A stretch of 46,802 nucleotides of DNA from a virus. The notes beneath the pieces are model-generated. The model was not told where the DNA came from. It made no database searches and saw only the letters and a program-made list of their open reading frames with translations. Both the position numbers and the translations under genes were made by a program. The DNA is taken from IMG/VR virus record IMGVR_UViG_3300039323_000029. The stretch is one strand, 5' to 3'. Shown piece after piece: positions 11,489 through 30,358 of this stretch; position 1 is the stretch's first letter, and every line of letters starts with the position of its first letter.

Positions 11489-11671
11489 CACCCAAGGATG
11501 AACCAAACTTTTTTTTATTTTTGCGGAACTTTCGGGGGTCACCCGCCCGCCCTGGCCGGGGTGCGTTTCCCCCTCCGGGGGTCACGTCCCCGGCTTCACG
11601 GCCAGCGCCCAGGACGGGCGCAGCCGGGGCAAGTCGGCCAGGAAAAACGCCGCCCGCCCTGCATAAAAAAT

Positions 11672-28314: not shown

Positions 28315-29430
28315 TTACCTCCCTTCCTCAAGGATTTTCAGGGAGTTCAGTATCAGGTCGGCAACTTTGCGCTTCGGATACACCGCCCTGAATAGGTGTT
28401 CCAGCATTTTCACAGGGATGGAGTTGCCAGCCATCTTGTAAATCTGGGTTTTGGAAATGCCGTTGTTCATCAGCAGTTCCACGTCAGCGTCAGTGAAGCC
28501 CATCAACCTGAAATACTCCGTAGGAGTCAGTTTGCGGTAACGCTCACCATCGTAAACTTTCACCTCACGTCCCCCCCCTGATACGGTTTTCAAGGTTGGG
28601 CATAGGCCGTCTGGTGAGTAAACCCGGTTCATCTGGTCGTTTCCGTAGTGCTGCAAGTCGGCAATTTGCTTAATTACCACCTTGCACTTCACCACCTTCG
28701 GGTCTTTGTAGTCCCTGGACAGGAGCGTGGGGCATATCCCCCCCCTGTCACCGATATGGCCGGGGTGCGCAGCGTTGTGGGTAATGACGCTTTGGGTTTT
28801 ATCTTCGGATAGATAGAATTGTTCAGGTACTTCATCATCCAGATAGTCACCCATGCAGGTTGTCAGCGGCACGGTAGCGGGGAAGCTAAACTTCCCATCG
28901 TCCACGTCCTTGCGAATTGATACAATCAAGACCCGCTCACGGCTCTGCGGAAGTTCGTAGTCAGCGCAGTTCATAACCTGCCAGTAATTGTTGTAGCCAG
29001 CTTCTTCAAGGCTTTTCAACACAAGGCCAAAGACAGGCTTCATGCTCTTGCTGGTCAAATGCTTCACGTTTTCCGCAATCGCAATTTTGGGACGGGTAGC
29101 TTCTATAATGCGGAGTGCGTCAAAGAACAGGCCGCTTCGGGTTTTCTTACCTTCACTATCCACCAGTCCTTTCTTTTCTCCGGCAATAGAAATGTCTTGA
29201 CACGGGAACCCGTAGGTTATGAGGTCAAGGTTGCGGGGTAACCGGGTTTCATCAATCTTTGTAATGTCACCGTAGTTCATGCTTTCCGGGACTTCGTGGA
29301 GAAGGGCGTATGCTTTACTTGCATACTTGTCAATCTCACAATAGCCAACCAGATTGTAGGCAATCCCCACATTTTCCAGCGCCCTTTCAAAGGCTCCTAT
29401 GCCGCTGAACAGCGATAACACGTTCAGCAT
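28315..29430 (-). CDS. DNA (cytosine-5)-methyltransferase
   Basis: Motifs I LFSGIGAFE, IV GFPCQDIS, VI ENV, VIII QSRERV, X GNSIPV. Confidence 0.92.
   Translation of the reverse strand: MLNVLSLFSGIGAFERALENVGIAYNLVGYCEIDKYASKAYALLHEVPESMNYGDITKIDETRLPRNLDLITYGFPCQDISIAGEKKGLVDSEGKKTRSGLFFDALRIIEATRPKIAIAENVKHLTSKSMKPVFGLVLKSLEEAGYNNYWQVMNCADYELPQSRERVLIVSIRKDVDDGKFSFPATVPLTTCMGDYLDDEVPEQFYLSEDKTQSVITHNAAHPGHIGDRGGICPTLLSRDYKDPKVVKCKVVIKQIADLQHYGNDQMNRVYSPDGLCPTLKTVSGGGREVKVYDGERYRKLTPTEYFRLMGFTDADVELLMNNGISKTQIYKMAGNSIPVKMLEHLFRAVYPKRKVADLILNSLKILEEGR
28571..28578 (-). repeat. G8 homopolymer (C8 on the plus strand) inside the methyltransferase gene
   Basis: cacgtCCCCCCCCTGATAcgg; encodes SGGG. 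Confidence 0.95.
28738..28745 (-). repeat. G8 homopolymer inside the methyltransferase gene
   Basis: atatCCCCCCCCTGtcacc; encodes RGG. Confidence 0.95.
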
Positions 29431-30358
29431 TAAGTACCTCCTTCTTCAATCATTTTCCAGCGGAACCGTCTGTCCGTTGGAACCAACCCCTTATCCTCAA
29501 ACTGGAAGCGCCTATCAAAATCGTGGACTGTTCGTCCATCGGAATGAAACGACACCGGGGAGTCCAAGTCCCACTTCATAAGAAGCGCCCAGAGGTCAGG
29601 GTAGTTCTTTCGGAGTTGCCGTAACTGGTCAACTCCCTGGTTGTGGCAAAACCAGCAGCCGCCACGGGTTGCAGTGGTGTATATGGGTGATAACAGGTCA
29701 TTTTCTTCACACCATTTCCAAGCGTCCGCTTCTGTCCAGCCGATTTCAGCCAGGGGTGACTTCTTAGTCACGCCGTCACAGCGTTCCAGGCGTTTAGGCT
29801 CGTCAATGGCAATCCCCAAATACTCCACCACAGTATGTTTATCAGTCCCCTGCGGGGTGGGACTTTCGGAAAAGACTTCATGGCTCTCCGCAGCGCAGCC
29901 ATCTTTAGGTCGGAGTTGCACCAGTTTCCCTTCCTCATGGGAAAGCCGTAAATCCTGCCCTGTCTGGCCGGAATTGCCTTGTAGAATATCTTTTCGTAAG
30001 TCAATATTGCTTCCGTATTTAAGGTGCTTGCACCACCCGCCGATGGTGAGAGGGAAGCCTTTGATGGTTCCTGGGAATTTTCCGGTCTGCAAGATACCGT
30101 AAAACCGTCTTTCGTAGGTGTCCTGTTCCCCCCCCTGATAGCGGAAATGTGTTCCACTTCAATACCCCATCGTTCCTTAATGATAGCGTCAGCTTTTCGC
30201 TTGAACTCCACCATTGGAGGAAGGTCAGCAGAAATTTCACAGGTTGCCCAGATTTCTGCGTGGACGATACGGTCAAGAGGCCAACCCAGTTTTTCAATGG
30301 CTCCCAGGCAAGCAAGGCTGTCTTTACCGTAACTTAGGAACAGTATGTGTTCGGTCAT
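29430..30358 (-). CDS. PAPS-reductase-family PP-loop protein, split into two overlapping frames at a G8 tract (ORF A 30358->29768, ORF B 30092->29430)
   Basis: N-terminus LFLSYGKDSLA (SGGKDS-type PP-loop). C-terminus GCWFCHNQ...YPDLW typical of phage PAPS-reductase-like proteins. A -1 shift at 30128-30135 joins them. Confidence 0.7.
30128..30135 (-). repeat. G8 homopolymer at the frame junction of the PAPS-reductase-like gene
   Basis: ctgttCCCCCCCCTGATAgcgg. The 0-frame reads ATC AGG GGG GGG AAC; the -1 frame continues GAA CAG GAC ACC TAC. Confidence 0.95.

Follow-up and report, generated by a model that had tools for sequence, protein, structure and literature searches.

The stretch of DNA analysed here, called the window throughout, is the 46,802-nucleotide (nt) virus record IMGVR_UViG_3300039323_000029 of IMG/VR. 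Positions 29430..30358 of its minus strand, on which all features of the gene and its immediate neighbour lie, hold a whole PP-loop ('PAPS-reductase-like', PHROG 424) gene that is divided between two reading frames and contains a run of eight Gs (G8, 30128..30135) and, in the mRNA, a run of four Us (U4, 29870..29873). Frame A is an open reading frame (ORF A, 30358..29768) of 196 amino acids (aa) that starts with MTEHILFLSYGKDSLA, encodes the PP-loop motif SYGKDS of the N-terminal domain at 30317..30334, passes through the G tract and is closed by a TGA at 29768..29770. An earlier, sequence-only reading of this DNA had given the same limits for ORF A and had noted its PP-loop. Frame B, the −1 frame, is closed on its 5′ side by a TGA at 30161..30159 and stays open to 29430; TTG 30092 is the earliest start-type codon in it, in agreement with the earlier remark that no ATG or GTG precedes this TTG. 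This TGA lies 23 nt from the tract, and the distance of 21 nt reported earlier needs correction. The C-terminal domain (29430..29831, VVEYLGIAIDEP ... GGCWFCHNQ ...) is read in frame B, as is its CWFC motif at 29657..29646. One additional G in the tract (G9), or a −1 slip at it, gives a single product of 309 aa, slightly shorter than the ~314 aa first proposed. Frame A covers 30358..29768 of the gene, and frame B extends to 29430. Frames A and B are open together over 129 codons; among 2483 off-frame open runs in the long ORFs of the window, seven reach at least 122 codons.

Between the two domains lie two diverged versions of one motif block. Block 1 (30018..30116) is encoded in frame B as YERRFY...GFPLTIGGWCKHLK (YERRFY...GGWCKHLK), and block 2 (29874..29998) in frame A as YEKIFY...GFPMRKGNWCNSDLKMAALRRAMKS (YEKIFY...GNWCNSDLK). 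Their onsets, YERRFYGILQTGKFPGTIKGFPLTIGGWCKHLK at 30116 and YEKIFYKAIPARQGRIYGFPMRKGNWCNSDLK at 29998, are offset by 118 nt. We scanned the frames with a family hidden Markov model (HMM) trained on 12 homologues with one block each and without an insert. Block 1 matched columns 75–121 with 32.7 bits, block 2 matched columns 79–124 with 31.8 bits and the C-terminal domain matched columns 123–254 with 258 bits. The sequence-only reading had described two copies of one block in different frames, and the near-equal scores bear this out: both copies carry family signal, not just one of them. In alignments A2 and A3, the same near-invariant family columns (F, Y, G, P, W, C, L and K) are contributed by each block. 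When read in the other frame, block 1 becomes a low-complexity linker of ~40 aa in frame A and block 2 a disordered linker in frame B.

AlphaFold models of two homologues reflect this arrangement. The block that is in frame was predicted with a per-residue confidence (pLDDT) of mostly 60–89 and the neighbouring out-of-frame stretch with values below 50, at mean pLDDT of 81 and 83.5 for the two models. In P0001, a 309-aa protein, the block-1 region has a pLDDT of ~60–87, and residues 132–171, which comprise the larger part of the frame-B reading of block 2 and the linker downstream, fall below 50. P0007, in which block 2 is joined in frame to the C-terminal domain, is the mirror image: residues 78–112, corresponding to block 1 out of frame, are below 50 and block 2 forms a longer helix.

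Both halves of the protein matched PHROG 424, annotated as 'PAPS reductase', with E-values of 4.8e-11 and 1.2e-20. The SYGKDS PP-loop is invariant (columns S9, Y10, G11, K12, D13 and S14 of alignment A2), and the model has a strand at residues 2–7 and a helix at residues 12–24. The profile check suggested earlier gave a divided result, since the HMM built from homologues matches both blocks, whereas neither the two ORFs nor the fused protein had a Pfam match at E ≤ 1, PF01507 included. NCBIfam provided no usable family assignment, and the family profile matched no sequence in the PDB. The best Foldseek matches were NcsA, TtuA, MnmA and QueC, all weak (E ~5e-3 and TM 0.31–0.35 for NcsA and TtuA). 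We therefore assign the protein to the PP-loop ATP-pyrophosphatase superfamily but not to PF01507. It has three conserved cysteines, one in the near-invariant WC..LK segment of the block and two in the CWFC motif. TtuA and NcsA are [4Fe-4S] PP-loop thiolases; on the strength of the weak fold matches and of general knowledge of these two enzymes, the block cysteine and the CWFC motif may likewise form an Fe-S cluster site. If the block cysteine does bind a cluster, exchanging the blocks would swap part of the active site.

We then compared the length of the G tract among relatives. Among 48 copies of the gene that are 88% or more identical, a sample biased by the queries used, we found G7 once, G8 in 22, G9 in 19, G10 in three and G11 in three copies. 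These lengths determine the product: 309 aa with G9, 196 aa with G8, 197 aa with G11 and, through the third frame, a stub of 98–99 aa with G7 or G10. More than one tract length occurred in 4 of 14 haplotypes that are identical across 929 indel-free columns. In alignments of 4–7 kb around the gene the G tract is the sole recurrent indel, and runs of A6–A7 are constant. We found the exact 196-aa G8 product in unrelated human-gut metagenomes put together by different assemblers, on no fewer than 15 contigs, of which many are near-complete genomes of 46–49 kb. A protein search with the fused sequence and cluster look-ups recovered the intact homologues that the sequence-only reading had proposed for comparison: three 309-aa proteins (P0001, P0121 and P0124), of which P0001 is 91% identical and P0124, a G9 form on 7 contigs, agrees with the fused product of the window to about residue 270. 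The 197-aa form (P0140) has one Gly more, is encoded by G11 and was seen on 3 contigs. Split gene forms were also found in a sister lineage by cluster look-ups, and exact-pattern scans of the tract context contributed just two further relevant contigs. By count alone, G8 tracts are at chance level (three in the 46.8-kb window, 2.5 expected), so the significance of the tract comes from the comparative data.

Because tract length differs among otherwise identical genes from independent samples, the toggle operates at the DNA level, as phase variation, and we are highly confident that the G tract is a DNA-level switch of this gene. Of the two options left open earlier, a toggle or a decaying gene, the first is upheld in this form and the second finds no support. 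Neither a sequencing error nor decay is the cause of the split gene. Homopolymers are error-prone and one more G restores the 309-aa ORF, as would be expected if G9 had been miscalled as G8 in sequencing or assembly. The identical G8 ORF, though, is present on those 15 or more contigs from different studies and assemblers, and three independent samples apiece have G10 and G11 on an unchanged haplotype, at loci without other indels. We regard such an artefact as very improbable.

To see which frame is maintained in each part of the gene, we counted synonymous and nonsynonymous changes (S:N) at variable haplotype sites. The N-terminal domain gave 32:6 in frame A and the C-terminal domain 60:22 in frame B. 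For block 1 the ratio was 19:4 in frame B versus 3:20 in frame A (binomial p = 5e-10), and for block 2 it was 14:2 in frame A versus 3:13 in frame B (binomial p = 3e-8). By this measure, purifying selection maintains block 1 in frame B and block 2 in frame A. In terms of gene nucleotides, the selected frame is A over 1–223, B over 232–349, A over 350–486 and B from 487 onwards. Frame A shows an S:N of 7:3 up to nucleotide 486 and 1:7 and 2:6 beyond the U-run, where there is no purifying selection in this frame. Pairwise pN/pS of block 2 in frame A was 0.02–0.18, including G9 lineages (0.03 for L001–L041 and 0.12 for L001–L068), yet the annotated ORF of G9 lineages reads block 2 in frame B. From the selection in frame A together with the AlphaFold models, we conclude that frame A is translated through block 2 and that this matters for fitness.

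This pattern also bears on a different way of compensating the G8 state, namely slippage at the G tract itself, either by −1 ribosomal frameshifting on A_GGG_GGG_G or by stuttering of RNA polymerase. Either would produce the block-1 enzyme from a G8 clone, with the predicted peptide ...SAIRGGEQDTYER, and could coexist with DNA variation. Long homopolymers cause transcriptional slippage, and G_GGG_GGG would permit perfect re-pairing of two Gly tRNAs. But folding of the sequence 3′ of the tract revealed no RNA structure beyond chance (z = 0.01), selection on block 2 in frame A is left without an explanation, and the length variation seen directly in DNA is sufficient. Slippage of this kind appears quite improbable to us.

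At the point where selection passes from frame A to frame B lies the U4 run (29870..29873), a candidate slippery site that encodes Phe in all three frames and is read UCU UUU CCG in frame A and GUC UUU UCC in frame B. The Phe-Ser junction was encoded by TTT-TCN (TTT-TTG in L080) in all 18 long-form junctions compared, which yields a run of U4 or longer in each. In the rest of the C-terminal domain the Phe codons are TTT and TTC in a ratio of 33:44, and both are used at other invariant Phe positions. As judged from this codon usage, the U-run is conserved at synonymous positions. In the three relatives in which the junction is a U5 variant (L080, L081 and L263), UAG or UGA comes right after UUU in the frame one base ahead of that of the C-terminal domain. 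A stop codon directly after UUU is a context that favours P-site slippage.

Six nucleotides 3′ of the U-run in the window, and 4–7 nt in relatives, an H-type pseudoknot is predicted (29828..29863). Its stem S1 (29863–29859/29849–29845) has 5–6 bp, and the loop of S1 pairs with a hexamer 11 nt further 3′ to form S2 (29855–29850/29833–29828). The MAFFT alignment A6 had split S2 at a one-codon indel; we therefore used A7, a realignment on truncated sequences that is free of gaps and holds 21 distinct sequences. In A7, 230 of 231 cells (99.6%) are paired and 7 of the 11 pairs show double compensatory changes. The covariation score was 0.480, against 0.170 ± 0.022 after shuffling, and none of 500 shuffles reached it; slid registers were only 37–54% paired. 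All four Watson–Crick combinations are represented at one S1 pair. At one S2 pair, 11 sequences have G-C and 10 have A-U, with the synonymous third base of a Gln codon covarying with the second base of a Thr/Ile codon. The G-U pairs are compatible with the sense strand only, which indicates a structure in mRNA. Distant relatives keep both stems in other sequence (CGGUGA/UCAUCG in L079 and GCGGG/CCCGC in L284). Ordinary minimum-free-energy folding 3′ of the U-run found nothing beyond chance, so that the pseudoknot is visible only by comparative analysis, and no Rfam family matched it.

Many relatives have the canonical heptamer G_GGU_UUU at this place, and L079, L081 and L284 have C_CCU_UUU. 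These heptamers are in phase solely with the frame one base ahead of that of the C-terminal domain, which is the frame of the alternative block, and in the C-terminal frame itself they are not slippery. Apart from the U-run, inspection of the tail of ORF A revealed no canonical −1 site. Since the U-run and the covarying pseudoknot sit exactly where selection switches from A to B, the comparative data suggest recoding at a second point, a −1 ribosomal frameshift by which block 2 would be joined to the C-terminal domain. In the G8 state such a shift predicts a second protein of 309 aa, ...NWCNSDLKMAALRRAMKSF|SESPTPQGTDKHTVVEY... (...MAALRRAMKSF|SESPTPQGTDKHTVVEY...), for which SFSESPTPQGTDK would be the marker peptide; VPPR and GLINILWWSIWGLPLTSLNAWNAVTA occur only in the unshifted frame-A tail. 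Over its full length, the predicted shifted G8 isoform matches the single-block HMM almost as well as the G9 isoform of the same length (431.0 and 442.8 bits). The earlier description of G8 as the state of a 196-aa product is correct for the ORF, but the presence of the U-run and pseudoknot where the frame is handed back suggests that G8 is probably more than a truncation.

We therefore favour, as a moderately probable reading, a two-level recoding switch in which a DNA tract is combined with a −1 ribosomal frameshift. At the first level, which the tract comparisons show, the G tract is a contingency locus, and slipped-strand mispairing would alter its length far faster than point substitutions accumulate. 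With G9, translation passes from the N-terminal PP-loop domain into frame B, using block 1, reading block 2 as a disordered linker and continuing into the C-terminal domain. With G8, as in the window, or G11, frame A is kept, block 1 becomes the linker and block 2 is read properly. G7 or G10 is the off state. At the second level, ribosomes in frame A would reach the U4 run and then the pseudoknot, and tRNA-Phe would re-pair from UUU to UUU one base back, in frame B. Shifted ribosomes would make the second 309-aa enzyme with block 2 and unshifted ones the 196-aa product. The hypervariable tract, the purifying selection in two frames and the covarying pseudoknot with its association and phase are directly shown; the shift of ribosomes at the U-run, what the enzyme modifies and the benefit of switching to the phage are what we infer here. 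The benefit is likely that the phage, by varying a nucleic-acid modification module, hedges its bets against the defences of its host.

Several points weigh against this reading, in addition to the query bias of the tract sample and the missing Pfam match. The support for the second level comes entirely from comparative sequence analysis. The window heptamer, G_UCU_UUU, is non-canonical and allows re-pairing by tRNA-Phe alone, so frameshifting there may be less efficient; S1 is short, and the pseudoknot might act in some other way, for example in pausing or in stabilising the mRNA. In some relatives, blocks two bases ahead of the C-terminal frame would require a rarer −2 shift. Finally, P0007 (contig L003) is the sole case in which block 2 and the C-terminal domain are joined in a plain ORF. 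We had at first taken P0007 as strong evidence but give it less weight, since it comes from one contig only and that contig has two further indels, even if both lie in intergenic DNA. L003 (Logan ERR13958288; locus nucleotides 186, ~3519 and ~3986) has G8, an AA deletion in loop 3 of the pseudoknot and two intergenic single-base deletions; its other genes are intact and the deletions are probably real variants and not read errors.

A simpler account would be a contingency locus of the plain ON/OFF or C-terminal-switching type without any frameshift, where G8 gives the 196-aa protein alone or a split enzyme whose C-terminal fragment is started at GTG 29921 within block 2, preceded by GAGGAAGGG. 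Tract polymorphism fits this account, gene callers do predict the 163-aa ORF from GTG 29921 (P0127 and P0129), and selection on block 2 demands just translation of frame A. The GTG carries no independent weight, however, because every TGG-TGY (WC) codon pair yields NTG-GTG in the −1 frame. Such a locus would also leave unexplained the synonymous conservation of the U-run, the covarying pseudoknot, their restriction to long forms of the gene (see below) and the in-phase canonical heptamers of relatives. We consider it fairly unlikely. The U-run and pseudoknot also argue against block 2 being a small independent overlapping gene (a 78-aa ORF from TTG 30004 to 29768) that is expressed whatever the state of the tract. 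This ORF is sometimes called (P0145 and P0146) and would account for frame-A selection in G9 lineages. But it is hard to see what 78 aa from an enzyme core would do alone, frame-A selection ends at the U-run and not at the end of the ORF, and the pseudoknot would be without explanation, which together make this idea extremely improbable.

These elements are unevenly distributed across the family. The U-run and pseudoknot were present in 39 of 43 distinct long-form junctions versus none of 32 short single-block forms. Short homologues (~250 aa) have one block and neither a repeat tract nor the U-run or pseudoknot. Long forms have two to four blocks spread over the frames, and repeats of poly-G, poly-C or (AG)n were found in the variable region of 15 of 20. 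In the P0059 clade, three blocks, one per frame, follow a G tract that ranges from G6 to G10 among members and from G7 to G9 among genes that are 96–100% identical. The out-of-frame blocks of this clade gave S:N of 7:3 and 9:2 in their own frames for five sequences (0:10 and 1:10 in the annotated frame) and of 10:10 and 11:3 when all seven sequences were used. Natural genomes fall into the frame states as 14:11:10, each state having a different well-formed block in frame. In L244 the VF|S junction is exactly where an alternative block has been fused in frame. L081 and L082 (27090 and 27088 nt), from the roe-deer Oscillospiraceae metagenome-assembled genome RGIG4249, are identical over the 1.1-kb gene region aligned, apart from a single AG unit: of their two (AG)n tracts, the second is (AG)11 in one and (AG)10 in the other, which places a different GFP..WC..LK block in frame. 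This is within-sample heterogeneity in a distant homologue and only an indirect sign of switching in one population.

These family data also speak to the possibility of a decaying mosaic pseudogene in which block 2 is a relic of recombination or duplication. Diverged duplicate blocks in a broken frame, the OFF states G7 and G10, the frameshifts of L070 and the insertion in L030 would all be compatible with decay. Yet every segment, in its own frame, is under purifying selection equal in strength to that on the N- and C-terminal domains, frame A is open in all relatives, and the multi-frame layout recurs in distant clades, with the out-of-frame S:N values given above for the P0059 clade. We give decay very little credence. 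For the wider family, we would put at about even the proposal that gut-Clostridia phages use a diversity generator in which a repeat (poly-G, poly-C or (AG)n) picks one of two or three cassettes, one per frame, and a U-run with a pseudoknot, as a 'frame-collector', returns ribosomes by −1 (or −2) to the constant C-terminal domain, giving heritable and reversible enzyme variants.

Further observations were made on the same genes. The P0059 clade (L169–L202) has a second G tract at gene nucleotides ~700–790, within the C-terminal domain, where it codes for RGG in the invariant RGGCWFC motif. It is mostly G8, with G7 or G9 in some relatives, and is probably a further ON/OFF switch. In L030 (IMGVR_UViG_3300006349_000059, nucleotides ~1590–2200) an ORF for an HNH-type homing endonuclease is inserted after codon 30 and the 5′ end of the gene is duplicated; the gene family is thus a target of homing and recombination. 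L070 has additional frameshifts in the gene.

Directly downstream of the PP-loop gene in the window is a gene for a C5 cytosine DNA methyltransferase (28315..29430, minus strand; PF00145, 234.5 bits, E = 2.7e-69). It contains two G8 tracts (28738–28745 and 28571–28578), both in frame (ON) in the window. With the tract of the PP-loop gene they make up all three G8 runs of the window, which share one strand and a span of 1.6 kb; apart from them, a T8 run at 11509–11516 is the sole homopolymer of at least 8 in the window. Among relatives, the methylase gene is split by differences in tract length, tract 1 having G6, G8, G9 or G10 and tract 2 having G7, G8 or G9. We considered that the tracts might flank a target-recognition segment read in alternative frames and rejected this, as the alternative frames between the tracts hold stops. 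On that ground, the methylase tracts are a simple ON/OFF switch. Some of the near-identical phage genomes carry the methylase gene and others lack it (L004, L006, L007 and L013 versus L005, L008, L010 and L011). Genomes lacking it have a gene of 657–663 aa directly downstream of the PP-loop gene, the methylase behaving as an exchangeable cassette. In the relatives L004–L013, genes for a Tad2-like protein (anti-Thoeris family PF11195) and an ERF recombinase are found ~3 kb downstream, and genes for a DEAD/ResIII helicase and a DUF6273 protein upstream of the module. By its gene content, the switch sits in an early, counter-defence region of the phage. Oscillospiraceae, Lachnospiraceae and related Clostridia carry the relatives as prophages; the phage collection searched held no close cultured phage.

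If our reading is correct, DNA phase variation and programmed ribosomal frameshifting would be united in one switch that exchanges part of an active site instead of silencing the gene, and overlapping frames would serve as a compact, recombinase-free store of alternative protein versions. Annotation pipelines would then systematically miscall such genes as 'frameshifted pseudogenes' or read through junk linkers. The PP-loop enzyme and the C5 methylase would form a widespread gut-phage module, all of whose modification genes are phase-variable, and which would bear on phage–host arms races and on how strain-level variation in metagenomes is interpreted. The frameshift element is short, well defined and rich in natural covariation, and is therefore directly testable.

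Programmed −1 frameshifting at a slippery site with an H-type pseudoknot or hairpin is known from dnaX, the IS911/IS3 transposases, the phage tail chaperones G/GT and coronavirus ORF1ab. The element described here shares with these signals a U-rich run, a spacer of 5–6 nt, a covarying H-type pseudoknot, canonical X_XXY_YYZ heptamers in relatives and a change of frame in coding selection. The classical signals leave the normal frame of the gene at a fixed product ratio, whereas the one here is in phase with the frame that is reached after a change in the DNA tract and would restore the frame. As for the enzyme, it has the SYGKDS PP-loop, the PHROG 424 assignment and the conserved Cys in common with PP-loop ATP pyrophosphatases (PAPS reductase/CysH-like, TtuA and NcsA) and differs from them in having no PF01507 match and only weak fold matches.

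Bacterial contingency loci and phasevarions such as the type III mod methyltransferases likewise shift the frame by slippage of a coding poly-G tract, affect DNA-modification genes and may have several tracts per module. In the gut-Clostridia phage, by contrast, selection maintains a version of an internal enzyme segment in each of two of the three frames, and the outcome is not simply ON or OFF. In phages, the A-tract of agt in T2/T4 is a hypermutable homopolymer in a DNA-modification gene with which T2 hedges between restriction of modified and of unmodified DNA (Gomez, Barrick and Waters, bioRxiv 10.1101/2025.10.21.683753), and polyG tracts occur in receptor-binding genes of Campylobacter phages (Sorensen et al. 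2021, cited in PMC12823448). In these accounts, the latter as it is cited there, both are ON/OFF or truncation switches, with no alternative in-frame cassette or re-phasing signal described. Closer in outcome is the C-terminal phase variation of Helicobacter canadensis, where a repeat within an ORF alters the downstream protein instead of silencing it (PMC2823697). There the alternative tail is whatever the other frame encodes; here it is a homologous, selected block, after which the original frame is apparently regained. We found no report in the literature that combines a contingency locus, C-terminal switching by a simple sequence repeat and pseudoknot frameshifting, or that describes the switch of this PP-loop gene family. 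Diversity-generating retroelements and shufflons are likewise phage-encoded and exchange a short segment while keeping the scaffold. Here, with neither a reverse transcriptase nor a recombinase, it is the reading frame that would choose among two or three fixed cassettes.

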